Shown here piece after piece: positions 15,036 to 48,911 of a stretch of DNA of 64,000 nt. The stretch covers positions 33,062 through 97,061 of the forward strand of contig CABRXF010000003.1 of the NCBI GenBank assembly GCA_902474885.1, read 5' to 3'. The notes under the pieces were generated by a model. It made no database searches. It was not told the DNA's origin and saw only the letters and a list, made by a program, of their open reading frames with translations. The translations under genes and the position numbers were made by a program. Each line of letters starts with the position of its first letter. Position 1 is the first letter of the stretch. This DNA comes from an uncultured Collinsella sp. Its GTDB lineage: Bacteria; Actinomycetota; Coriobacteriia; Coriobacteriales; Coriobacteriaceae.

Positions 15036-17477
15036 GTGGCAGAGCGTCCGACATACAAGCTCAGGTTTCTTGATCCCAAAAAGCGCTTTCCGGCCATGCC
15101 CGAGCAGTCTGCGGGACGATCGTATGGCGTGGTTTGGAAGCTCTTTGGCGATGACCAGCATGAATCATGCTATGTCGTCGAATTCGTCGGCAAAAGCCAT
15201 GTGTCGCTTTTGGGCTACGTGAGCGTTTCGGGTGAGGTCTATAAGGTGGACCGTCCCGTTAACGAGATGTCGCTGCCCGACGATCCCGACATGCAATTGA
15301 TTCTTGACGAGTCCGATTCCAACATCGGTGAGATTGCGGTCAGGGGTACCGATGGGACGATGTACTCCCGGGCGCGAGTCATCGGCTCTCCCGAAGGCAC
15401 CATGCGTGAACAATCCGATCGCGAGACGTGGAATTCGACGCGCAGCCTTCGCTACGGCGAGTTCATGGCCTCGATGTTCTTGCGTTACGTGGTATTTGCC
15501 GATTCTGAAAACGCTGTCTTAGGCACGGCAGACGGTGACGGCCTCGACGAGGGCATGAAAAATGCCGTCGACAAGATCAAACTTGTAAAACTCCCCGAGC
15601 CGGTTGAGGTACTGCTGGGTTTTGATTCCACGCCGCTGCCCGATGCAATCGAAACGTTGCTCTACCGCATTGACCATGCAGATAATCCAAGTGGCATTGA
15701 GCGCTATGCCGCCGCTTTGATGGGCGAAGTTAATCTGCCACGCCTGCGCACCATCGCGGCCAAAACCGAAATGAGCCTGGCGCGCATCGATCGCTCGAGG
15801 CTCTTCTATCTCAATTTTGACCGTAGCCTGCTGGACCAGGACGAGATCGATACCCTGCTTGCCGTCGAGTGCCGCCTGAACCGCCTATCGGGCATCCTTG
15901 AGCGTATTGGGGCAGGGTTGGGCCCCGTTGCCTCGTCGCCAAGCTTTGAGGGCTGCTCGCTCTTTGACCTATGGCATATCAGCAAGACGACAAACGACGT
16001 TCCTCGCTTGCTCGAAACGCTGTCGAATGACAACCCGTGGGCCAAGCCGGGGACGGTTGCGTGCCAGCCGGGTGGCGAGTGGGACGTTCGCACTCGCTTT
16101 GCACGTCTCGTAGAAGCGCTCAACGTGGTCACGCGTCTCGACTACACCTATCGAGCGAACGTCGCCGAAGGCATCATGCTGGTGCGATTTGGCCGCACGG
16201 TTGTCGATGCTATGCCGCAGCGCGAATACGATGCTCAAGATGACGCCTGGCGCGAGGTGGATGAGCCTAAGCGCGCGGCATGGGCCACTGAGCACGATGC
16301 ACGCATTGCGCTTACACTCGCGGCGGCTTGCTTTGCTTCGGGCGCTCGCATCATGCGCTGCTACGTGCAGATTGCGGCTCCCGACGGTGAGCAGGGCGAG
16401 CGCGTCGTTGAAACGTATTCCTTTGGCCGTGCGGCCTATCTGGCCGATTGCGTTTCTGTCGCCAAGGATCTTGAGAGCATGGATATGGACGACATGCCCT
16501 GCAAGCATTTGCTCGAGGCATATGAGGCAGATGCTCCGGACATGATTGAGCCTGCAGAGGTTCACGCTCGGCCACGCGATGACCATCGTCCATTGCCGCC
16601 TGCGCTTCGCGATTTACTGCTCGCTGATACGGCTGACGAGCTTGAGGTCATGGAGGAGGACAACGATCCGTATATCGCCCGCGTCGTCGAGCTGCGCGAG
16701 CAATCCAAAGTTGACCGAGCCGGCGCTTTCGAGGGCTTTTCTCGCCTTGTCGAGGAGCTGGAAGCCAAGTGTACTGTTGCTGAGCTTTTGGCGACGGGCC
16801 CGGTGCAGACCCAGTTCTGCGACAACCAGCTGGTGCGCATGGTGCTGCCGGTGATGGAGGAGGACCGTTCCGTGCGTATCCTTCGCGCTCCCGATGCGCT
16901 GTATTTTGCCCAGCATGAGATCTGCAGCTTTTACGCCGAACAAGAGGACTTTGAGCGTGCGCTGCCCGAGGTGCGTCGTCTCTACGATTTGGCACGCTCG
17001 TCTATGCAGTCTCACTTTGCCCTGATCAACGTGCTAGCACGCCTGGAGCGCTATGACGAGATTATCGAGGTGGCGCGCCACGGCCTGCGCATCGCCAGTG
17101 ACCGGCCTTCGATCGGTTACCTGTTCTATCGCCTGGCGTTTGCCTATTGGAACTGCGACCAGCTCGAGCTGGCGCTGGCGTGCTACCGCCTGGTGCCGCG
17201 TGGCGAGGAGTCGGGTGGCAGTGCGCAGGAGGAAATGCAGGGCCTTATGAACGAGATGGGCGTCATCAAACCGCCCACGTTCGAGGAGGCTGTCGAGACT
17301 ATCCGCAAGGCAGGTCTTGAGCTGCCGCCGGTGCCCGCCGTGACCAATCAGCTCGCGGATGCCGCCGTGCAACTCGTCGATAACGGTTTCTTTTTCTTGG
17401 CGCGCGGCTGCATCTATCAAATGTGGCGCACCATGGGCAACGATGAGCTCGGCTCCCTCAACCGCTCGCTGGGGTAG
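15036..17477 (+). CDS. Large hypothetical protein (813 aa). No Walker motifs. TPR-like helical repeats at the C-terminus.
   Basis: Uninterrupted ORF from GTG 15036 with an AGGGTGA ribosome-binding site. The C-terminal segment YLFYRLAFAYWNCDQLELALACYRLV is TPR-like. Nothing else recognised by eye. Confidence 0.55.
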   Translation: MAERPTYKLRFLDPKKRFPAMPEQSAGRSYGVVWKLFGDDQHESCYVVEFVGKSHVSLLGYVSVSGEVYKVDRPVNEMSLPDDPDMQLILDESDSNIGEIAVRGTDGTMYSRARVIGSPEGTMREQSDRETWNSTRSLRYGEFMASMFLRYVVFADSENAVLGTADGDGLDEGMKNAVDKIKLVKLPEPVEVLLGFDSTPLPDAIETLLYRIDHADNPSGIERYAAALMGEVNLPRLRTIAAKTEMSLARIDRSRLFYLNFDRSLLDQDEIDTLLAVECRLNRLSGILERIGAGLGPVASSPSFEGCSLFDLWHISKTTNDVPRLLETLSNDNPWAKPGTVACQPGGEWDVRTRFARLVEALNVVTRLDYTYRANVAEGIMLVRFGRTVVDAMPQREYDAQDDAWREVDEPKRAAWATEHDARIALTLAAACFASGARIMRCYVQIAAPDGEQGERVVETYSFGRAAYLADCVSVAKDLESMDMDDMPCKHLLEAYEADAPDMIEPAEVHARPRDDHRPLPPALRDLLLADTADELEVMEEDNDPYIARVVELREQSKVDRAGAFEGFSRLVEELEAKCTVAELLATGPVQTQFCDNQLVRMVLPVMEEDRSVRILRAPDALYFAQHEICSFYAEQEDFERALPEVRRLYDLARSSMQSHFALINVLARLERYDEIIEVARHGLRIASDRPSIGYLFYRLAFAYWNCDQLELALACYRLVPRGEESGGSAQEEMQGLMNEMGVIKPPTFEEAVETIRKAGLELPPVPAVTNQLADAAVQLVDNGFFFLARGCIYQMWRTMGNDELGSLNRSLG

Positions 17478-31121: not shown

Positions 31122-31310
31122 GTCGAACTGCTAGTTTGTGCGGGTTGTGGTTTTGTGAGCTGCGGGAATTTAAGATACTGTACAACTGTACGCTAACTCA
31201 TCTTCGTAGTATATTGCTACCCGCAAAACTCCGCACCATTGTGCTGTGAGACGCTAAAGTGCCTTCGTACAATGGTTGTTAATAGCACGATTCGGCTAAA
31301 CGATAGGATG

Positions 31311-34097
31311 GATGGTCCAAGCGTGAGTCTCGGCAGCAAACTATCCGATGCAAAGGTTTCCTTTGCAATCTTTAAACGCGACATCAAGCGATTGATCGTG
31401 AATCCCGTCGCCCTGGTGGTTACCCTGGGCGTGTGCGTCATTCCCTCGCTGTATGCCTGGTACAACATCGTTGCCAACTGGGATCCGTACGGAAATACCC
31501 AGGGCATTAAAATCGCCATCGCCAACAACGATCAGGGCACCCAGAACGACCTAGTGGGCGAGCTTAACGCAGGCGATAAGGTGGTCGACCAGCTCAAGGA
31601 GAACGACCAGCTTGGCTGGACTTTCGTCGACTCGGCGGCAGATGCCAAAGAGAGCGTCGAAAGTGGCGAGTACTATGCTGCCATCGTGATTCCCAAGAAC
31701 TTCTCCGACAATCTCGTCTCGATGCTCGACGGCAATTACCATCAGCCGAAGCTCACCTATTACGTCAACGAGAAAAAGAGCGCCATTGCGCCCAAGGTCA
31801 CCGATACCGGTGCCAACACCATCGAGGAGCAGATCAACTCGGAATTTGTCTCCACGGTGGGCGAGACCGTCGCGGGCATTGCCAAAGATGCTGGCATCGA
31901 CCTTAAAGACAAGGCAACCCAGACCCAGGATTCGCTGGCGGGCTCGGTGTCCGAGGCGTCTGATACCCTGGGCGAAGTACGTGATTCCATCGGCGACATG
32001 AACGCCGCCATCGACAAGACAAGCAGCTCGATTGCTTCGGCCGATGCTGCGTTGGCGGGCCTGCAGGGACAGGCGCCTTCGCTAACGCAGGCAATCGCTC
32101 AGGGTAATGATCTGCTGGGCGAAGCTCGCACCACGGCTGGCAAGTCCATCACCTCGCTCTCCAAGGCACTTTCGGAGGGCAGCATCGTGCTGAGTAAGAC
32201 ATCGGCTTCTGCGAACGCCGCGATTGGCAGGCTTACCGGTACGGTTACGTCCACGACCACCCGAATCGACAACTCGCTCGAATCCCTTCAGGCGACGATT
32301 GACCACAACAGCGCTGTCATCGAGCGCCTGCAGATTCTCGCTAACGATACGTCGACGGGATCGGAGAACGCCGACGCGCTCATCGCGTCGACCATCAATT
32401 CGCTTCGCGAGCAAAACCAGAAGCTGCAGAGCATTAAGGATGGCCTTTCTGCACAGTCGAGCGCCATGGCAAACGACGCTACGGCAATCTCGAACGCGAG
32501 CAACGCGCTTAACGCGGCAATTCAGACCGGTACGGCTAACCTCGGTCAGGCTCAGACCGATCTGGGGCAGAACGCACTGCCGAAGGCTTCGGGCGCGCTT
32601 GACTCCTTTGCCGCCGTTTCGGGCGATTTGACCGGCATTGTGTCGGGTATGACCCCCACGATAGCGAGCGCGCGCGGCACGCTGGCGCAGCTCGACGCCA
32701 CGCTCAAGCAGGCAAAGACCACGCTGTCCCAAACCGACACCTCCCTTGCCAAGGTTCAGGACAAGCTCGCGACCGCCGCCAATGACATTGCGGCGCTGCA
32801 GACCTCTGAGTCTATGGGCGAGTTAGCCGACCTCATGGACGTCGACGTCGATGACGTGGCAGATTTCATGGCATCTCCGGTTGAGCTGACGTCCAAGTCC
32901 ATCTATCCGGTCAAGAGCTTTGGCTCGGGCATCGCGCCCTTCTACACCAATCTGGCGCTGTGGGTAGGCGGCTATGTGCTCATCGCTATCTACAAACTCG
33001 AGGTCGACCGCGAGGGCATCGGTAGCTTTACGGCGCGTCAGGGCTACTTTGGCCGCTGGTTGCTGCTGGTGATCCTGGGCGCGTTCCAGGCCATTATCGT
33101 TACGGTGGGCGACCTGGTCATTGGCGTTCAGTGCGTCAATCCGCTGCTCTTTGTGCTGGGCGGCATCGCTATCTCGTTCACCTACGTCAACATCATCTAT
33201 GCGTTGTCCACCACGTTTAAGCATATCGGTAAGGCAATTGGCGTCATCCTCGTCATTGTGCAGATTCCCGGCTCGTCGGGTATGTATCCCATCGAGATGA
33301 TGCCCGGCTTCTTCCAGTGGCTGCACCCGCTGCTGCCCTTCACCTATGGCATCAACCTGCTGCGCGAGACCGTCGGTGGCATGTATTCGTTCAACTACCT
33401 GTTTAACCTGTGCATCCTGGGCGTGTTCCTTATCATCGCGCTCTTTATCGGTCTGCAGCTGCGCCCGTTGCTGCTCAACCTCAACCTGCTCTTTGATAAG
33501 CAGCTTTCCACGACGGGCCTCATGATCTGCGAGTCCAACGACCTGCCGCGCCAGCGCTATTCGCTGCGCACGGCCATGCGCGTCGTGCTCGATTCCGATT
33601 CGTACCGTCGCGAGGTGCTCGACCATGCCGTGGCGTTTGAGCATCGCTACCCCTACTACATCAAGGGCGGTTTTGCCGCTGTGGTAGGCGTGCAGGTTCT
33701 GCTCTTTGTGCTTTCGACAGTGCTCGATATCGACAATAACGGCAAGATCATCCTGCTGGTCATCTGGATTGTCTCGGTCATTGCCATCTGCGGCTGGCTT
33801 ATCAATATCGAATATATCCGCGCGAGCCTCAATACCCAGATGCGCATCTCGGCGCTTTCGGACGAGGACCTTCGCCGCGAGATGCGCGAGCACACGGCTG
33901 CCATCCCTGCCGCCCGTCGCATGTTTGGTCTCAACGCCAGCGAGCGGGGCACCAAGGACAGCGAACAGCCCACGAGCCGTCTGCCGCATATCGGTGCGCA
34001 TCGTAAGGTTCAAGATGCCGACGGCGTTGACAACGTAAACGGAAACGACGGGGACACCGCCCCGCTCGGCAAGCACTCCAAAGGAGGTGAGGCATAA
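31311..34097 (+). CDS. YhgE/Pip domain membrane protein (phage infection protein / EsaA-like)
   Basis: N-terminal FKRDIKRL...VIPSLYAWYNIVANWDPYGNT...YYAAIVIPKNFS, a long Ala/Ser/Thr-rich helical ectodomain, and C-terminal transmembrane helices (ABC-2-like). The start is uncertain: the ORF opens at 31239 and ATG 31311 was chosen. Confidence 0.7.
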   Translation, partial: DGPSVSLGSKLSDAKVSFAIFKRDIKRLIVNPVALVVTLGVCVIPSLYAWYNIVANWDPYGNTQGIKIAIANNDQGTQNDLVGELNAGDKVVDQLKENDQLGWTFVDSAADAKESVESGEYYAAIVIPKNFSDNLVSMLDGNYHQPKLTYYVNEKKSAIAPKVTDTGANTIEEQINSEFVSTVGETVAGIAKDAGIDLKDKATQTQDSLAGSVSEASDTLGEVRDSIGDMNAAIDKTSSSIASADAALAGLQGQAPSLTQAIAQGNDLLGEARTTAGKSITSLSKALSEGSIVLSKTSASANAAIGRLTGTVTSTTTRIDNSLESLQATIDHNSAVIERLQILANDTSTGSENADALIASTINSLREQNQKLQSIKDGLSAQSSAMANDATAISNASNALNAAIQTGTANLGQAQTDLGQNALPKASGALDSFAAVSGDLTGIVSGMTPTIASARGTLAQLDATLKQAKTTLSQTDTSLAKVQDKLATAANDIAALQTSESMGELADLMDVDVDDVADFMASPVELTSKSIYPVKSFGSGIAPFYTNLALWVGGYVLIAIYKLEVDREGIGSFTARQGYFGRWLLLVILGAFQAIIVTVGDLVIGVQCVNPLLFVLGGIAISFTYVNIIYALSTTFKHIGKAIGVILVIVQIPGSSGMYPIEMMPGFFQWLHPLLPFTYGINLLRETVGGMYSFNYLFNLCILGVFLIIALFIGLQLRPLLLNLNLLFDKQLSTTGLMICESNDLPRQRYSLRTAMRVVLDSDSYRREVLDHAVAFEHRYPYYIKGGFAAVVGVQVLLFVLSTVLDIDNNGKIILLVIWIVSVIAICGWLINIEYIRASLNTQMRISALSDEDLRREMREHTAAIPAARRMFGLNASERGTKDSEQPTSRLPHIGAHRKVQDADGVDNVNGNDGDTAPLGKHSKGGEA

Positions 34098-36287
34098 ATG
34101 AAAAACATCCTGCACCTGTTTAAGCGCGATGTCCAAAACGTGTCTCGCTCCGTGATCGGCATGGTCGTCGTGATGGGCCTCATTATCGTGCCGTGCCTGT
34201 ACGCGTGGTTTAACATCGCCGGTAGCTGGGATCCCTACGGCAATACCGGCAACCTTAAGATCGCCGTGGTCAACACCGACGAGGGCTACGAGAGTGATCT
34301 GATTCCCGTCGAGGTCAACGTGGGCGAAAACGTAACCGCCACTCTGCGCGGCAACGAGAACTTCGACTGGGTCGTTCTCAACGACCGCGATAAGGCGATT
34401 GAGGGCGTTAAGTCGGGCGCGTACTACGCTGCCGTCGTTATCCCTAAAACGTTTAGCGCCGACATGATGACGCTTTTCTCGACCGAGGTGAAGCACGCCG
34501 ATATCGAGTTCTATGAGAACCAGAAGGCCAACGCCATCGCACAGATTGTGACCGAGAAAGGCTCGAGCGCCGTCCAGAGTCAGGTCAACGAGACCTTTAC
34601 CGAAACCATCACGACCATCGGCCTTAAGACCGTGTCCAGCCTGCTCGACTATATGAGTACCGACCAGGTGGGCAACTTTATCGCCAATCTGTCCTCTACG
34701 CTGGGCGATTCGGTCGAGGACCTGCAGGACGTTCAGGCGAGCGCGACGTCGCTTGCGGGCATTTTGAGCTCTACGTCCGATTCACTGACATCGGCGGGCG
34801 GCATGCTCAAGCAGACGGGCACCGTTGATGAGTCGACGAAGCAGCTGATGGAGCACGCTAAGAGCGGCATCAATGATTCCAAGGAAGCGCTCAAGGCCGC
34901 CAACGATGCCGTTAACGCGGCGATTGACGGAAGCGCGGGTTCGTTCGACAACGTCTCCGCCGAGCTTGCGAAGGCATTCGACGCAGCGAATCAGCATGTT
35001 GACCTTACGGTATCTCAGCTCAACGAAGCCGCGGCGGCACTCAATACGCGTGCTGACGATATCGATGCGATGGCCGATCGGCTCCGCAACCTAGCCGACC
35101 AGGTGAGTGATGACAAGCTCAAAGACGGCCTCAAGTCCGCTGCGACGTCGCTGGGCAGAATTGCCGTGGAGTACCGCAACAATGCGAAAGACCTGACGGC
35201 GACCGCAAAGTCCCTTTCGGACAGCATGGCGGAGGTCAACAACTCGCGTGCCGAGGTCGACCAGGCCATCGCCGATGCCAAGGCGGGTATCTCGGGTGCC
35301 AAGTCCGACTACGATTCTACGTTTTCGGTCAAGGCCAAGGAGCTCAAGAAGACCATTTCGGGCGTTCTGGATTCCCTGAACGGTATCTCGGGCGACTTGG
35401 ATAGCGCCGTGAGCGGTCTGACCGACGCTTCTGGTTCGCTCGCGAAGGGTCTCTCCAAGGCTGCAAAGCTCGTCAACAAGGCTTCCGATCAGCTGGGCGA
35501 GGCGTCGGACAAGATCAGTGCCTTTAAGGACGAGCTTGATAGCGCTCTGATCTCGGGTGACCTGGCCACGATCAAGACGATGATCGGCAACGACCCCGAG
35601 GGTCTGGCCGTGTCGCTTTCCGGCCCCGTCGCGCTCGACCGCAAGCCGGTCTATCCGATCCGCAACTACGGCTCGGCCATGGCGCCGTTCTATACGATTT
35701 TGTCGCTGTGGGTGGGCTCGATTGTTCTGGCGGCCATGATGAAGGTCTCGGTTGACGATGAGCTTATCAACGAGCTCATTCCCGTGCGCCTGCACGAGAT
35801 CTACCTGGGCCGTTATCTGTTCTTTGGCGGTCTGGCCTTGCTGCAGGCGACGCTCGTGTGCGCGGGCGACATTCTGTTCTTTGGCATCCAGTGCGACAAC
35901 CCGTTGCAGTTTGTGCTGGCGGGCTGGGTTGCGAGTCTCGTGTTCTCCAATATCGTCTACACGCTTACGGTTTCGTTTGGCGATATCGGCAAGGCCCTCG
36001 CTGTCGTGCTGCTGGTCATGCAGGTCGGCGGTTCGGGTGGCACGTTCCCCATCGAGATGACCGGTCCCGTGTTCCAGGCGATCTATCCGTTCCTGCCGTT
36101 TACCCACGGCATCAACGCCATGCACGCCGCCATGGCCGGTGCCTACTATATGGAGTACTGGGTTGAGCTGGGTATTCTGGCGAGCTATCTGATTCCGTCG
36201 CTGGCCCTGGGCGTCGTCTTCCGCCGCCCGGTCATCAAAGCCAACGACTGGATTATCGAAAAGCTGGAATCAACAAAGTTGATTTAG
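34098..36287 (+). CDS. YhgE/Pip domain membrane protein, a paralogue of the upstream gene
   Basis: Same architecture (FKRDVQNV...VPCLYAWFNIAGSWDPYGNT...YYAAVVIPKTFS, then a helical ectodomain, then C-terminal transmembrane helices). Starts 1 nt after the upstream stop. Confidence 0.7.
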   Translation: MKNILHLFKRDVQNVSRSVIGMVVVMGLIIVPCLYAWFNIAGSWDPYGNTGNLKIAVVNTDEGYESDLIPVEVNVGENVTATLRGNENFDWVVLNDRDKAIEGVKSGAYYAAVVIPKTFSADMMTLFSTEVKHADIEFYENQKANAIAQIVTEKGSSAVQSQVNETFTETITTIGLKTVSSLLDYMSTDQVGNFIANLSSTLGDSVEDLQDVQASATSLAGILSSTSDSLTSAGGMLKQTGTVDESTKQLMEHAKSGINDSKEALKAANDAVNAAIDGSAGSFDNVSAELAKAFDAANQHVDLTVSQLNEAAAALNTRADDIDAMADRLRNLADQVSDDKLKDGLKSAATSLGRIAVEYRNNAKDLTATAKSLSDSMAEVNNSRAEVDQAIADAKAGISGAKSDYDSTFSVKAKELKKTISGVLDSLNGISGDLDSAVSGLTDASGSLAKGLSKAAKLVNKASDQLGEASDKISAFKDELDSALISGDLATIKTMIGNDPEGLAVSLSGPVALDRKPVYPIRNYGSAMAPFYTILSLWVGSIVLAAMMKVSVDDELINELIPVRLHEIYLGRYLFFGGLALLQATLVCAGDILFFGIQCDNPLQFVLAGWVASLVFSNIVYTLTVSFGDIGKALAVVLLVMQVGGSGGTFPIEMTGPVFQAIYPFLPFTHGINAMHAAMAGAYYMEYWVELGILASYLIPSLALGVVFRRPVIKANDWIIEKLESTKLI

Positions 36288-43951: not shown

Positions 43952-44179
43952 CCCCTTCGTCCTCGGTCTTCTGGGATTAAAGCTGAGGAGAAGAATGGCG
44001 CGCTTCTCGCCTTACGACTGTAGCGGCCGCGGTCCCGTTTGGGATCGCGGCCGTTTTGTTGTGGGTCAAATATGAACGTTATGTTAACGACTCGGTGGAC
44101 GGTGGCGTTTTTCGGTGAGCGGCGTATCCTTCCAACGGTTTATCTAGTGTGTCAGTTGAAAGGAAGAGGGCGCTCGTCA

Positions 44180-45457
44180 TTGTTTGAATGTGAACTGCCG
44201 TTTGACCACAAGACGTTGCATCTGGAGCTCGAGGATAAGAACTTTGCAGGTGTGATGGAAGGTCATCAAAACGAGTTTAAGACCACGAAATCGCAGGAAG
44301 AGCTGGTGGAGGAGTCACTTGCCAACCCTTACGGCTCGCCTTCGCTCGAGGAGCTCTGTGCTGGCAAGAAGGATATCGTCATCATTAGCTCCGACCATAC
44401 GCGTCCCGTTCCTTCGCGTGTGACGATGCCTATTCTGCTGCATCACATCCATTCTGCTGCGCCTGAAGCGCGCGTTCGCATTCTGGTTGCTACGGGTATG
44501 CATCGTCCGTCGACGCACGAGGAGCTCGTCAACAAGTACGGCGAGGAGATCGTTGCCAACGAGGAAATCGTTATGCACGTCGCGACTGACGACAGCATGA
44601 TGAAAAAGATCGGCACCCTGCCTTCTGGTGGCGAGTGCATCATCAATAAGATTGCCGTCGATTGCGATCTGCTGCTTGCCGAGGGCTTTATTGAGCCGCA
44701 CTTCTTTGCTGGTTTCTCCGGCAGCCGCAAGTCCGTCCTGCCTGGCATCGCCAGCTACAAGACCATCATGTACAACCACAACGGCCAGTTTGTGAACGAT
44801 TCCCATTCGCGTGCCGGCAACCTGTGCCATAACCACGTGAGCGAGGACATGTTTGCCGCTGCCGAGATGGCTCACCTTGCCTTTGTGCTGAACGTGGTGC
44901 TCAACGGCAAGCACGAGGTCATTGGCTCCTTCGCCGGCGACATCCACAAGGCACACGAGGCTGGCTGCGAGTTCGTAAAGAGCCTTGCCGGCGTTGAGCC
45001 CGTCGAGTGCGAGATTGCCATCACCACCAACGGCGGCTACCCGCTCGACCAGAACATCTACCAGGCCGTGAAGGGCATGTGCTCTGCCGAGGCCACGCTT
45101 CCCGAGGGCGGTGTGATCATCGACGTCGCCGGTTGTGCCGACGGTCACGGCGGCGAGGGCTTCTATCACAACATCGCCGACAACGATCCGGCAGAGTTTG
45201 AGCGCGCCTGCATCGACCGTCCTAAGGACGAGACCCTGCCCGACCAGTGGACGAGCCAGATCTTTGCCCGCATCCTGGCGCATCACCCCGTGATCATGGT
45301 CACCGACCTGTGCGATCACCAGATGATTAAGGATATGCACATGACGCCGGTCAACACCCTCGAGGAGGCGCTCAAGCTCGCCTTTGAGATGAAGGGTGCC
45401 GATGCCAAGGTGGCCGTCATTCCCGATGGCCTGGGCGTTGTTGTCGCTCAGCACTAG
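44180..45457 (+). CDS. larA: Lactate racemase (nickel-pincer cofactor dependent, DUF2088 family)
   Basis: IVIISSDHTRPVPS, ...FIEPHFFAGFSGSRK, ...ITTNGGYPLDQN. Start placed at TTG 44180, after an AAGGAAGAGGG ribosome-binding site, by alignment to the LarA N-terminus. The ORF track opens earlier at 44039. Confidence 0.75.
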   Translation: MFECELPFDHKTLHLELEDKNFAGVMEGHQNEFKTTKSQEELVEESLANPYGSPSLEELCAGKKDIVIISSDHTRPVPSRVTMPILLHHIHSAAPEARVRILVATGMHRPSTHEELVNKYGEEIVANEEIVMHVATDDSMMKKIGTLPSGGECIINKIAVDCDLLLAEGFIEPHFFAGFSGSRKSVLPGIASYKTIMYNHNGQFVNDSHSRAGNLCHNHVSEDMFAAAEMAHLAFVLNVVLNGKHEVIGSFAGDIHKAHEAGCEFVKSLAGVEPVECEIAITTNGGYPLDQNIYQAVKGMCSAEATLPEGGVIIDVAGCADGHGGEGFYHNIADNDPAEFERACIDRPKDETLPDQWTSQIFARILAHHPVIMVTDLCDHQMIKDMHMTPVNTLEEALKLAFEMKGADAKVAVIPDGLGVVVAQH

Positions 45458-45506
45458 CGCGCGGCCTAAACGAATCGTTTATAACTGACAAGAAAGATAA
45501 GGTTTT

Positions 45507-46238
45507 ATGCTTACCAAACTCCTCTGCGAATTCGGCGCAACGGCCCTCATGATCATCTTTGGCGTGGGCGTGCACTGCGATACCGTGCTTAAGGGCACCA
45601 AGTATCAGGGCTCCGGCCACATGTTTGCCATCACCACTTGGTCTTTTGGCATCTCGGTCTGCCTGTTTGTCTTTGGCGGCGCCGTGTGCATGAACCCGGC
45701 TATGGTGCTTGCCCAGTGCATCGTAGGCCTGGTGCCGTGGAGCAGCTGCATCCCCTTCATGATTGCCGATATGCTCGGCGGCTTTGTGGGCGCCGTAATC
45801 GCTTGGCTTATGTATGCCGATGAGTTCAAGGCTTCCGAGGGTGTCGTCGACCCCATTGCCCAGCGCAACATCTTCTCGACCAACCCCACCACCGAGGGCA
45901 CGAACTATGTTCGCAACTTCTTCTGCGAGGCTATCTGCACCTTCGTGTTCATTAGCGCCATCCTTGCTGCCGCTAGCCGCGCCGGTGAGAACGTTTTGAT
46001 GCTCGCCATCTGCGTCGGTCTGATCGTTTGGGCCGTTGGCATGGGCATGGGCGGCATCACTGGCTTCGCCATGAACCAGGCTCGTGACCTTGGTCCTCGC
46101 ATGGCTTATCAGGTGCTGCCGATCAAGAACAAGGCTGACAACAACTGGAAGTACGGCCTGCTTGTTCCTGGCATTGCTCCGTTTGTTGGTGCCGCTCTGG
46201 CCGCGCTGTTTGTGCATGGTTTCTTGGGCATGTTCTAG
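45507..46238 (+). CDS. larD: MIP-family aquaglyceroporin (LarD-like lactate channel / GlpF-like)
   Basis: Six transmembrane helices. First NPA motif present (CMNPAMVLAQ). The second is NQA (AMNQARDLGPR). Lies next to larA, as in the Lactobacillus lar operon. Confidence 0.65.
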   Translation: MLTKLLCEFGATALMIIFGVGVHCDTVLKGTKYQGSGHMFAITTWSFGISVCLFVFGGAVCMNPAMVLAQCIVGLVPWSSCIPFMIADMLGGFVGAVIAWLMYADEFKASEGVVDPIAQRNIFSTNPTTEGTNYVRNFFCEAICTFVFISAILAAASRAGENVLMLAICVGLIVWAVGMGMGGITGFAMNQARDLGPRMAYQVLPIKNKADNNWKYGLLVPGIAPFVGAALAALFVHGFLGMF

Positions 46239-46260
46239 TCCAAAACAATTGATATAACGC

Positions 46261-46390
46261 CCGGGTCCGGCATAGGTTAACTTTCCGCCGCGTCCTCGGA
46301 CATGCAAGAAGCTCCCGCTGCGCACTTCGTGCGGCGGGAGCTTCTTGCGTCCTGCGGAGTGCGGCGGAAAGTTAACCTATGCCGGACCCT
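46261..46390. repeat. A 130-bp nested palindromic element, homologous to the one at 43833-43951. The outer stem is ~29 bp, the inner stem is 14 bp, and the apical loop is GCAC-TTCG-TGC.
   Basis: ccgggtccggcataggttaactttccgccgc...caagaagctcccgctgcgcacTTCGtgcggcgggagcttcttg...gcggcggaaagttaacctatgccggaccc. The internal gcgtcctcg and ctgcggaRtgc motifs are shared with the other element. Confidence 0.75.
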
Positions 46391-46544
46391 GCGGGAATTC
46401 AGTTGCGTTCGAACAAGCAACCAACATATATATCTGAATTTGGATGTGGTGGGCACTTTGTTGTTAGGCGCTTTGAGGTGCGAGTGACACTTTGGGATGC
46501 GTGGCGGCCTGGGTTGGGGCGATGCTTTGGGATGAGGGGTTTAC

Positions 46545-47084
46545 TTAGTTGAAGAGGGGTTTTATGGCTGAGAGGTAGTCTTTGGCTACGTCGGCTTTAT
46601 CTGCTTGGAAGTTGTGCCAGGCCCACCATTGGACCATTCCTACGAAGCTTGAGGCTATGTGGTGTAGCAGGAAGCTTCGGTCCATGGTGGCGGCGGGGCC
46701 GTTTGGGTCGGTGGGGACGGTTTCGGCTGCTCGTGACATGATGGTCTTGCGTAAGCAGTCGGCGAAGACGCGTGAGCCGGCGCCGGCTACGAGGGCTCGA
46801 ACGCCCTGGCGGCGCTCCCAGAGGTTGTTGAGGATATGTTCGACCTGCACGAGTGGGTCGTCGAGCGGTGTGCCATCGTCGTCGAGGGCGTGGGTGCAGA
46901 TGTCGCTTACGAGCTTGGACAGTAGGTCGTCTTTGCTCTTAAAGAGGCCGTAGAACGTGGCCCGACCCACATGGGCGCGCGCGATGATGTCGCCGACGGT
47001 GATCTTGCCGTAGTCCTCCTCGCGAAGGAGCTCGGAAAACGCCGTGACAATGGCGGCGCGGCTTTTGGTTTTGCGGGCATCCAT
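46545..47084 (-). CDS. TetR/AcrR family transcriptional regulator
   Basis: HTH ITVGDIIARAHVGRATFYGLFKSKDDLL. Its ATG lies 2 nt after the larC stop. Confidence 0.8.
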   Translation of the reverse strand: MDARKTKSRAAIVTAFSELLREEDYGKITVGDIIARAHVGRATFYGLFKSKDDLLSKLVSDICTHALDDDGTPLDDPLVQVEHILNNLWERRQGVRALVAGAGSRVFADCLRKTIMSRAAETVPTDPNGPAATMDRSFLLHHIASSFVGMVQWWAWHNFQADKADVAKDYLSAIKPLFN

Positions 47085-47086
47085 GG

Positions 47087-48004
47087 CTATGCGTCCACGT
47101 GAACAAGCAGGCAACGGAGCGTGCCGGAGCAGCCCTCGTAGGGGCGCTTACCGGCGCCGTAGCCGACGGCTTCGATGCGGTAGCGGGCCGGCAGTTGGTC
47201 GGACGTACGCAGCGCGGTGACGATGGCGGCGCCCGTGGGCGTCACGAGCTCGCCGGCGACCGGTGCGGGCGTGAGGGCGATATTGCCTGCCTGGCACAGA
47301 TTGACAACAGCGGGGACGGGAATGGGCATAAGGCCGTGGGCACAGTGGATGGTGCCGTGGCCCTCGGAGAGCGACTCGACGACAATCTCCTCGATGCCCA
47401 GGTCATCGAGACAGATGGCGACAGAGCAGACGTCGACGATGGAGTCGACGGCGCCCACCTCGTGGAACATGACGGTCTCGGGCGTTTTGCCGTGAGCCTT
47501 GGCCTCGGCGGCGGCGAGCGTGGTAAAGATGGCGAGGGCGCGACGCTTGGCGCCATCGCTTAGCTGCGAGCCGTCGATGATGGCGGTGACGTCCGCCAAA
47601 GAACGATGGTGATGGTGGTGGGCGTGATGGTGACCCTCGTGGCCATGGCCGTGGGTCTCATGGTCATGCTCGTGGCAGTGCTCGTGTTCGTGCTCGCCAT
47701 GGTCATGATGGTGGTGTTCATGCTCGTGCGTGTGCTCGACGGCTGCTTCGTTGCCGTAGAGCCAGGCCATATCGTGATCGTGGTTCTCGAGCTCCTCTGC
47801 AAGCTGGACGTCGAAATCGCAGGCGTCGATGCCATGCTTGTTTACGCGCGTGACGGCGATCGTAAAGCCGTCGACCGGCAGTGTGGCGAGCTGTTTGCGC
47901 AGGTGCTCCTCGCTGGCGCCCAGGTCGAGCAGGGCCGCGACGGTCATATCGCCGCTGATGCCCGAGGTGCCGTCGATGATAAGCGTGTGCTGATGGTTTG
48001 ACAT
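47087..48004 (-). CDS. larC: LarC-like nickel-insertion protein (DUF111). N-terminal LarC1 domain only, with a His-rich insert.
   Basis: LIIDGTSGISGDM N-terminal motif. A ~45-aa His-rich tract (HTHEHEHHHHDHGEHEHEHCHEHDHETHGHGHEGHHHAHHHHH). 305 aa against ~420 aa for full-length LarC. No LarC2-like C-terminal domain downstream. Confidence 0.7.
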   Translation of the reverse strand: MSNHQHTLIIDGTSGISGDMTVAALLDLGASEEHLRKQLATLPVDGFTIAVTRVNKHGIDACDFDVQLAEELENHDHDMAWLYGNEAAVEHTHEHEHHHHDHGEHEHEHCHEHDHETHGHGHEGHHHAHHHHHRSLADVTAIIDGSQLSDGAKRRALAIFTTLAAAEAKAHGKTPETVMFHEVGAVDSIVDVCSVAICLDDLGIEEIVVESLSEGHGTIHCAHGLMPIPVPAVVNLCQAGNIALTPAPVAGELVTPTGAAIVTALRTSDQLPARYRIEAVGYGAGKRPYEGCSGTLRCLLVHVDA

Positions 48005-48014
48005 GGAATGCTCC

Positions 48015-48797
48015 TTAACGGGCGCGGGATGTGCCGGCGCTCAGATGATTGATAAGACTTGCCTGGTAGGCGGCACCAAAGCCGTTGTCGATATTGACGA
48101 CCGAAACGCCGCTGGCACAGGAGTTGAGCATGGCGAGCAGTGCGGCCATGCCACCAAAACTTGCGCCGTAGCCCACGCTGGTGGGAACGGCGATGACCGG
48201 ACAGCTCACCAGACCGCCGATAACGCTTGCCAACGCGCCCTCCATGCCGGCGATGGCGATGACCACCTGTGCCTGGGCAAGTTCCTCAGCATGAGCGAGC
48301 AAGCGGTGTAGGCCGGCGACACCTACGTCGTAGAGGCGATCGACCTCGTTGCCGTAGAACTCGGCCGTCAGTGTCGCCTCTTCGGCGACGGGCAGGTCGC
48401 TCGTGCCGGCGCAGGCGACGACGATGCGTCCGTTGCCGGTAGGGGAGGGCTTGCCGCCCACCAGGGCGAGCTGGGCGTCCGGGGTATATCCCAGATCGAT
48501 GTCGTTGCCGAGAAGCTCAGCGGTGCGCGCGGCTTTTTCGGCATCCAAGCGTGTGACCAGGATGCGCTCCTGGCCTGCATCGAGTAATGCTTTGATGATG
48601 GCAGCAATTTGTTCGGCGGTTTTACCGGCACCGTAGACAACCTCGCCGGCTCCCTGGCGCACTCCGCGCGAAAGATCGAGCTGCGCAAAGCCCAAATCGG
48701 CGGTCGGAGCCGTCTGGATGCGCGTAAGGGCGACGGCCGGGGTGACTGATCCGCCGGCAACATCGCTCAGCAGCTGCTCAAGATCTCGCTTATCCAT
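48015..48797 (-). CDS. larB: LarB, pyridinium-3,5-biscarboxylic acid mononucleotide synthase (PurE-like)
   Basis: PurE-like C-terminal fold (VVIAIAGMEGALASVIGGLVSCPVIAVPTSVGYGASFGGMAALLAML) with the LarB-type N-terminal extension. GAAGGGAA ribosome-binding site before the ATG at 48797. Confidence 0.75.
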   Translation of the reverse strand: MDKRDLEQLLSDVAGGSVTPAVALTRIQTAPTADLGFAQLDLSRGVRQGAGEVVYGAGKTAEQIAAIIKALLDAGQERILVTRLDAEKAARTAELLGNDIDLGYTPDAQLALVGGKPSPTGNGRIVVACAGTSDLPVAEEATLTAEFYGNEVDRLYDVGVAGLHRLLAHAEELAQAQVVIAIAGMEGALASVIGGLVSCPVIAVPTSVGYGASFGGMAALLAMLNSCASGVSVVNIDNGFGAAYQASLINHLSAGTSRAR

Positions 48798-48911
48798 ATA
48801 TGTTCCCTTCGACGGCGCAAAGTCTAGCACTCAAAGGGTATGTTTCCGAACACTAAGACAAAATTGTTCGGAAACTATAGGACAGGCTGATTCAATTGTT
48901 AGACAGATCGG

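Follow-up and report, generated by a model that had tools for sequence, protein, structure and literature searches.

A reduced lactate racemase locus with a LarC1-only nickel insertion protein in Collinsella aerofaciens

LarC, the nickel insertion protein of the lactate racemase (lar) system, is to our knowledge the only biological cyclometallase. In Lactiplantibacillus plantarum the genes form a larA-larB-larC1-larC2-larD-larE operon, in which a programmed frameshift links larC1 to the larC2 gene behind it; the boundary between the two domains lies at residues 271/272, and LarC2 binds cytidine triphosphate (CTP) (PMC13510736). In current models the substrate is activated by LarC2 and nickel is inserted by LarC1, with an essential linker between them (PMC13510736). 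Here we describe a lar locus in a 64-kb stretch of bacterial chromosome (the window) whose LarC consists of the LarC1 domain alone and whose neighborhood contains no larE. By its gene content and its relatives, this is a real lactate racemase locus, a reduced variant of the known system and a conserved trait of its lineage rather than a one-off defect. We lean towards the reading that it supports a working, reduced lar system, with its missing steps provided by genes elsewhere. A LarC reduced in this way is of moderate interest, since LarC2 and the linker are both regarded as essential.

The window is a chromosome segment of about 60% GC that carries the housekeeping genes metG, ksgA, tatD, serS, proC, htpG, hisS, ppc, serB and aspS. 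The five genes of the lar locus sit between ppc and serB. The exact LarA protein is recorded as 'nickel-dependent lactate racemase [Collinsella aerofaciens]', and the best 80 genomic matches to the window LarC, referred to below as the 80 Collinsella loci, are nearly all labelled Collinsella; by these matches, the organism is C. aerofaciens. We found no paper in the literature that ties Collinsella to lar genes.

On the plus strand, larA (44180–45457, TTG start) encodes a 425-residue nickel-pincer-dependent lactate racemase that scores 600.9 bits against NF033504 (cut-off 460) and also matches PF09861 and PF21113. Its alignment with 6C1W and 5HUQ, structures of L. plantarum LarA, extends from end to end (596 bits, with an identity of about 70% estimated by eye) and shows that the catalytic residues His108 and His174, the cofactor-tethering Lys184 and the nickel ligand His200 (L. 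plantarum numbering) are all retained. It is followed by larD (45507–46238, plus strand, 243 residues), a lactic acid channel of the major intrinsic protein (MIP)/aquaglyceroporin family, which scores 420.3 bits against NF043012 (cut-off 390) and matches PF00230. Facing this pair, a larB-larC1-tetR operon occupies the minus strand. Its first gene, larB (48015–48797, minus strand, 260 residues), encodes a predicted nicotinic acid adenine dinucleotide (NaAD) carboxylase/hydrolase with 287.8 bits against NF033503 (cut-off 175) and 264 bits against L. plantarum LarB (7MJ0), and the equivalents of Ser127 and Cys221 are conserved. The true start of larB is the ATG at 48797, since a stop codon shortly precedes it in five related genomes. 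The last gene of the operon, tetR (46545–47084, minus strand, ATG at 47084 and stop at 46545, 179 residues), encodes a TetR-family regulator whose N-terminal helix-turn-helix matches PF00440 (37.9 bits, cut-off 24), while PF14278 reaches 24.3 bits, just under its cut-off. A preliminary description of this DNA had proposed an incomplete, split lar locus with larA-larD on the plus strand and tetR-larC-larB on the minus strand, and every element of it, LarB included, is present.

The middle gene of the operon, larC1 (47087–48004, minus strand), encodes a nickel insertion protein of 305 residues. It is clearly a LarC, with 193 bits against TIGR00299.2 (cut-off 90), and it aligns with chain residues 18–241 of the 414-residue Moorella thermoacetica LarC chain in 12BI (E = 1e-35). 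It spans only positions 1–234 of the 375 positions of PF01969, and the inter-domain linker and the C-terminal CTP-binding LarC2 domain are missing. When aligned to a full-length LarC of 446 residues, the match runs to residue 288, and the full-length protein has 158 more residues; the window protein ends four residues past the point at which the full-length protein continues into the linker and LarC2. Full-length relatives also continue where its C-terminus (...GTLRCLLVHVDA) stops. The alignment thus bears out the earlier view of a 305-residue LarC without LarC2 and places its end at the LarC1/LarC2 boundary. The stop codon, likewise as described before, lies 2 nt from the ATG of tetR, the DNA reading ...CTT GTT CAC GTG GAC GCA TAG CC ATG GAT... 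across the junction. Recoding at this stop, which would produce a fusion to TetR or expose a hidden LarC2, was considered and rejected: the junction lacks a slippery heptamer, and none of the frames encodes a LarC2. Longer Collinsella LarC entries in the databases (369–471 residues) were also examined as potential full-length proteins and turned out to be internal duplications or frameshift read-throughs into tetR.

The LarC1 domain itself appears fully equipped. Ten pocket and histidine residues of M. thermoacetica LarC1 are needed according to mutagenesis (PMC13510736), and the equivalents of all of them (D15, R71, E104, H108, H118, E119, D124, D128, H160 and E187) are invariant in 81 sequences. 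The equivalent of M. thermoacetica H116 (Met179 of LarC1, window positions 47468–47470) is a methionine in 77 of the 81 Collinsella LarC1 copies and a leucine in the other 4; an H116A mutant of the M. thermoacetica enzyme keeps about 60% of its activity (PMC13510736). We note that this position is a histidine in two full-length LarC proteins of related Coriobacteriia (P0242 and L097, introduced below) and a leucine in a third (L177). The window LarC contains 37 histidines in its 305 residues, compared with 21 reported for LarC1 of L. plantarum and 8 for the M. thermoacetica domain (PMC13510736), and the His-rich tract reported earlier as unusually long is therefore confirmed. It covers residues 73–134 (47603–47788, minus strand) and varies in length. 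The 81 Collinsella copies are 301–313 residues long and have 35–41 histidines each; the LarC1 database clusters span 287–333 residues, and the examples that we fetched differ in the His-rich tract. Its length differences between strains look like the gain or loss of HEHEHHHHDHGE-like units.

The remaining genes are under constraint. Pairwise Nei–Gojobori ratios of nonsynonymous to synonymous substitution rates (dN/dS), determined at a synonymous divergence of 0.13–0.26, were 0.022 for larA, 0.065 for larD, 0.089 for larB, 0.090 for larC1 and 0.106 for tetR; the reference genes ppc, aspS and serB gave 0.032, 0.026 and 0.033. LarC1 is full-length in all 80 Collinsella genomes, and a scan of species-representative genomes with it confirmed at least 553 stretches that match. 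The LarC1 protein BFK37753.1 is encoded on the 2,536,697-bp chromosome of Collinsella sp. i05-0019-G5. Of the 80 genomes, 72 have a full-length LarB; five of the other eight have their sole stop upstream of the true ATG, two are cut by contig ends, and one aligns to residue 267 of 271. These data bear on one of the three options left by the preliminary description, namely that the racemase is non-functional, the other two being that LarE and LarC2 are encoded elsewhere and that a different sulfur-insertion route is used. If no cofactor could be made without LarE and LarC2, LarA would be inactive and the locus a decaying remnant, and this would agree with the two essential functions missing from the locus, with a larA-larD cassette that is not universal and with a larA whose alignment appears broken in two in 2 of 56 genomes (L021 and L065). 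However, dN/dS lies between 0.02 and 0.11 for all five genes, with larA constrained like aspS or ppc, even though a synonymous divergence of about 0.2 represents ample time for decay. Given in addition that LarC1 is intact throughout, that most LarB exceptions are explained by the start codon or by contig ends, and that the catalytic residues are invariant, the comparisons argue strongly that the locus is not decaying and that all its remaining genes are intact and under purifying selection. We consider a decaying remnant very unlikely.

To place the locus, the useful comparator is not Lactobacillus but a module found in sister Coriobacteriia. The closest full-length LarC relative found by a LarC1 search of representative proteins (P0242, 487 residues) is 71% identical over LarC1, and its contig (L088) carries larB-larC-tetR followed by an M20 peptidase gene, with a LarB 78% identical to that of the window. 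A metagenome scan with Coriobacteriia LarC2 queries returned two loci (L097 and L098) with the order larE-larB-larC-tetR and a LarC of 496 residues; LarB, LarC and TetR of L097 are recorded under 'uncultured Parolsenella sp.'. Furthermore, a LarA in the same 90%-identity cluster as that of the window (P0539, 89.6% identical by BLASTP) is recorded from Paratractidigestivibacter, a member of the Atopobiaceae, and three Paratractidigestivibacter loci (L177–L179) show the complete layout, larA-larD facing tetR-larC-larB-larE. In L177, LarC has 547 residues, upstream of larB there is a larE of 239 residues that contains the motifs SGGVDS and CxxC, and a nik/opp-like ATP-binding cassette (ABC) transporter then follows; its proteins are identical to those of the window at 90% (LarA), 93% (LarD), 71% (LarB) and 63% (LarC1) of positions. 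In L088, L097, L098 and L177, the gene directly downstream of full-length larC encodes an orthologue of the window TetR (57%, 54%, 64% and 65% identical, respectively), which on this comparison makes the tetR position ancestral and not an insertion that displaced larC2.

The C. aerofaciens locus and the Atopobiaceae module (Paratractidigestivibacter L177–L179, Parolsenella L097 and L098) therefore agree in the order and orientation of larA-larD facing tetR-larC-larB and have orthologous tetR, larB and LarC1. They differ in that the LarC of the module (487–547 residues) has the linker and LarC2, and in that a CxxC-type larE (239–250 residues) lies directly upstream of larB. C. aerofaciens has serB at that place, and its locus lacks the nik/opp-like ABC transporter found in L177. 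The layout had first been presented as a departure from the Lactobacillus operon; that view does not hold, as the same convergent layout exists in complete form in Atopobiaceae, with full-length LarC and with larE upstream of larB. Because Paratractidigestivibacter has this complete layout and Parolsenella has larE-larB-larC-tetR, the C. aerofaciens locus is best read as a deletion derivative of a six-gene Coriobacteriia module, larA-larD/tetR-larC-larB-larE. By the same comparison, what was lost is larE and about 176–238 codons for the linker and the CTP-binding LarC2. The Atopobiaceae LarE proteins (L177, 15077–15796; L097, 5449–6201) have 239–250 residues with SGGVDS, CxxC and RVR motifs and, in place of the usual C-terminal region, a low-complexity tail rich in Glu, Arg and Ala.

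Neither of the lost elements is found near the locus. No LarE-like open reading frame (ORF) in any frame of the window contains SGGxDS or a looser PP-loop motif. Searching the window by tblastn with LarE from L. plantarum (a query that is a 100% match to PDB 5UDQ), a CxxC-type LarE from L089 and a Parolsenella-type LarE from L097 gave best E values of 0.16–0.6, the L. plantarum query reaching 0.5; two LarC2 queries, one from a Lactobacillales-like contig and one from the closest relative, gave best values of 0.06–3.4. A remnant of larE or of LarC2 somewhere in the window was thus considered and dismissed, the motif scans and all five tblastn queries having returned none. The earlier observation that LarE is absent within 3 kb stands and can be widened to 44 kb in one direction and 15 kb in the other, and the same holds for LarC2. 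The same queries found no match in the 80 Collinsella loci, each covered for up to 10 kb on both sides, and a scan of viral contigs with Atopobiaceae LarE also gave no match. Lar genes are dispersed in other Coriobacteriia, such as one with larB-larC and no larE within 10 kb (L085) and one with larC alone (L090), so an unlinked larE would be unremarkable. An apparent stand-alone LarC2 in L085 proved to be a full-length LarC with a stretch of N interrupting its sequence.

A working system with unlinked components, the reading to which we lean, could operate as follows. LarB would carboxylate and hydrolyze NaAD to the pyridinium-3,5-biscarboxylate mononucleotide P2CMN. The corresponding bisthiocarboxylic acid (P2TMN) would be made by a sulfur insertase encoded outside the locus, most probably an unlinked LarE homologue. 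Nickel could be bound by the long His tract of LarC1 and inserted in its conserved acidic pocket, and the CTP-dependent activation that is usual for LarC2 would either be provided by some factor from beyond the locus or not be needed. LarA would take up the cofactor on Lys184 and racemize lactate, which would pass the membrane via LarD. The operon would be controlled by TetR, whose gene is predicted to be translationally coupled to larC1.

Several results weigh against this proposal. The database, metagenome and locus searches that we made located no LarE and no LarC2 for Collinsella. The best 120 hits of a search with L. plantarum LarE, which reached down to 52% identity, were all Lactobacillales-like; none was named Collinsella or abundant, and their amino acid composition revealed no high-GC candidate. 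A search with the LarC2 of the closest relative gave only proteins of up to 252 residues in clusters of up to 65 members, compared with 26,068 and 18,356 members in the Collinsella LarC1 and LarA clusters. This difference makes an abundant stand-alone Collinsella LarC2 of vertical origin unlikely; with hits of that length, the search addresses stand-alone LarC2, and a second full-length LarC or a fusion lies outside its reach. None of the best 80 metagenome LarC2 loci, many of them from human gut, was C. aerofaciens-like among the matches listed, and the ten most GC-rich full-length LarC representatives all fall into clusters of 1–5 members. Mutagenesis of the M. thermoacetica linker dropped activity to below 10% (PMC13510736), which argues against efficient function of a LarC2 provided in trans. 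Finally, larE lies in the operon in the sister taxa, and its absence here must reflect a real deletion or relocation.

These same results raise the question of whether the loss is genuine. In that case, C. aerofaciens, and independently some Firmicutes such as Fastidiosipilaceae, would make active cofactor with LarB and a LarC1-only insertase in the absence of LarC2 and possibly of LarE. LarC1 alone would insert nickel without CTP-dependent cytidinylylation, perhaps with, as its substrate, an intermediate to which a nucleotide handle is already attached, and another donor or enzyme would provide sulfur. Such a scheme would explain why no abundant LarC2 candidate turned up in the LarC2 searches and why larE and LarC2 have gone from either side whereas selection still acts on larB and larC1. 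It also finds a parallel in a Fastidiosipilaceae locus (L092, 4844–8918), where larA, a DUF308 gene, larB and a 305-residue LarC1-only gene are followed by a MarR gene, with no LarC2 or LarE within 8 kb. The layout resembles that of Collinsella and is of independent origin. In a set of 270 sequences, composed of 150 LarC representatives and the hits of the LarC2 search, 57 have at most 340 residues and no LarC2 motif, many of them being partial matches or fragments. Regarding the chemistry, L. plantarum LarC can convert P2TAD, an analogue bearing adenosine monophosphate (AMP), to cofactor (PMC13510736), and a natural nickel-pincer adenine dinucleotide cofactor is among the work cited in PMC13524815. 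On the other side, the searches covered loci, protein clusters and listed metagenome matches rather than whole Collinsella genomes, and the LarC2-domain hits, none longer than 252 residues, would let a second full-length LarC or a fusion escape. LarB is 71% identical to a copy that stands beside full LarC in sister taxa, with no sign that the AMP moiety is retained, and all published biochemistry needs LarE and CTP/LarC2. We therefore regard a genuine loss as possible but unlikely.

LarB and LarC1 might instead have been kept for another role, such as the storage or chaperoning of nickel by a His-rich LarC1, with LarA served by another pathway or not at all. The biosynthetic operon does occur apart from the racemase gene: one genome (L080) has kept larB-larC1-tetR although larA-larD is missing from it, and the Parolsenella operon has no larA within 8 kb. 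A LarC1-only gene of 310 codons (L091) sits beside unrelated genes, with no larB on its 2.6-kb contig, and each Collinsella LarC1 has 35–41 histidines. However, it is not the histidines alone that are conserved but every LarC1 residue that lines the proposed substrate pocket, and the catalytic residues of LarB are conserved as well. Moreover, larA was inserted and retained right beside larB-larC1-tetR and is under the strongest constraint at the locus. Such a role is improbable.

The insertion of larA points to the history of the plus-strand genes. In L080 (URTP01000004.1, 10092–10396), the spacer behind tetR runs directly into ppc, and larA and larD are absent. In 17 of the 80 relatives the contig breaks off less than 300 bp past tetR; in L061 (11457–12426) the sequence leads at this point into an insertion sequence (IS)-like transposase gene, and at least seven genomes have another foreign junction sequence in common there (CTGATATYTTCTGTATTGAAGACGTCGATG...). 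From these junctions, larA-larD (44056–46240) reads as a cassette of strain-variable presence that is exchanged horizontally. Between Collinsella and Paratractidigestivibacter (L177, 10001–15796), larA-larD is 90–93% identical while the adjacent tetR, larC1 and larB are 63–71% identical, suggesting that the pair was recently exchanged between genera. LarA and LarD are also less GC-biased in composition than their neighbors. Taken together, the absence in L080, the foreign junctions, the two levels of identity, the roughly 70% identity of LarA to its L. plantarum counterpart and the less GC-biased composition indicate a cassette that is mobile within Coriobacteriia and lies beside an older biosynthetic operon.

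Between the convergent larD and tetR lies a nested palindrome (46263–46389, no strand assigned), in which 29-nt arms (46263–46291 and 46361–46389) that are 100% complementary and 69 nt apart enclose an 18-nt hairpin. The palindrome is also present in L080, where it adjoins ppc. Its probable function is that of a bidirectional terminator, and the surrounding spacer, as the junctions indicate, is an insertion hot spot. A terminator-like hairpin (44022–44055, plus strand), consisting of a 15-pair stem followed by a T-rich tail, lies after ppc, between ppc and the larA-larD cassette. In the serB-larB spacer, a promoter-like −35/−10 pair (48874–48902, minus strand; CTAACA-17-TATAGT) agrees with the consensus at 9 of 12 positions; this is no more than a match to the consensus, and the region shows no excess of such sites over the expectation from shuffled sequence. 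Elsewhere in the window, two long ORFs of 616 and 813 codons (2–1852 and 15036–17477) have coding-like composition and no Pfam match at E ≤ 1e-5, and 31239–36287 encodes two adjacent large ABC-2-type membrane proteins (952 and 729 residues) with DUF3533-like N-terminal regions.

The locus represents a natural experiment: strong selection maintains LarA, LarB and a LarC1-only protein in a human gut bacterium that is very abundant and can be cultured, and at the same locus its sister genera have full LarC and LarE. If LarC2 and LarE are encoded elsewhere in the genome, the domains would work unlinked. If they are absent, nickel insertion would be CTP-independent and the sulfur would have a different source; CTP-dependent cytidinylylation would then not be universally required for the step that forms the Ni–C bond, and LarE might be replaced by another sulfur donor. 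Both possibilities bear on the prediction of lactate racemase capacity from gut metagenomes, for which pipelines demand LarB, LarC and LarE close together.

Compared with the described systems, the C. aerofaciens locus has the same protein families as the L. plantarum operon, and in both the LarC1 frame ends at the domain boundary (PMC13510736). In L. plantarum, larC2 follows at this point and larE is part of the operon; in C. aerofaciens, tetR begins 2 nt after the larC1 stop, without a slippery site and without larC2 in any frame. The regulators also differ, being of the TetR family in C. aerofaciens and a Crp-family LarR in L. plantarum. Relative to M. thermoacetica LarC, which has been visualized by cryo-electron microscopy (12BI–12BL; PMC13510736), the C. 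aerofaciens protein shares the LarC1 domain with the ten tested residues, but it has neither the linker (residues 236–248) nor the hexamer core formed by LarC2, carries Met and Ser at the positions of H116 and H72, and has a far longer His tract. Other loci are divided in further ways. A metagenome lineage (L094, 1012–3087) encodes a 549-residue LarE-LarC1 fusion and, abutting it, a separate LarC2 ORF of 141 codons, so that LarC2 is still adjacent, unlike in C. aerofaciens; we note that many database clusters hold LarC2 proteins of exactly 141 residues. In GCA_001941165.1 (63.5% GC; L086, 10001–10474), a stand-alone LarC2 of 157 residues follows ftsZ and a NUDIX gene, with no LarC1 within 10 kb upstream or about 5 kb downstream, where the contig ends. 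LarC2 can thus be encoded away from LarC1, although the LarC2-domain search found no Collinsella equivalent. Across these loci, the LarC1/LarC2 boundary appears as a recurrent break point of the protein, and LarC1 without LarC2 in cis has, by this comparison, arisen more than once.

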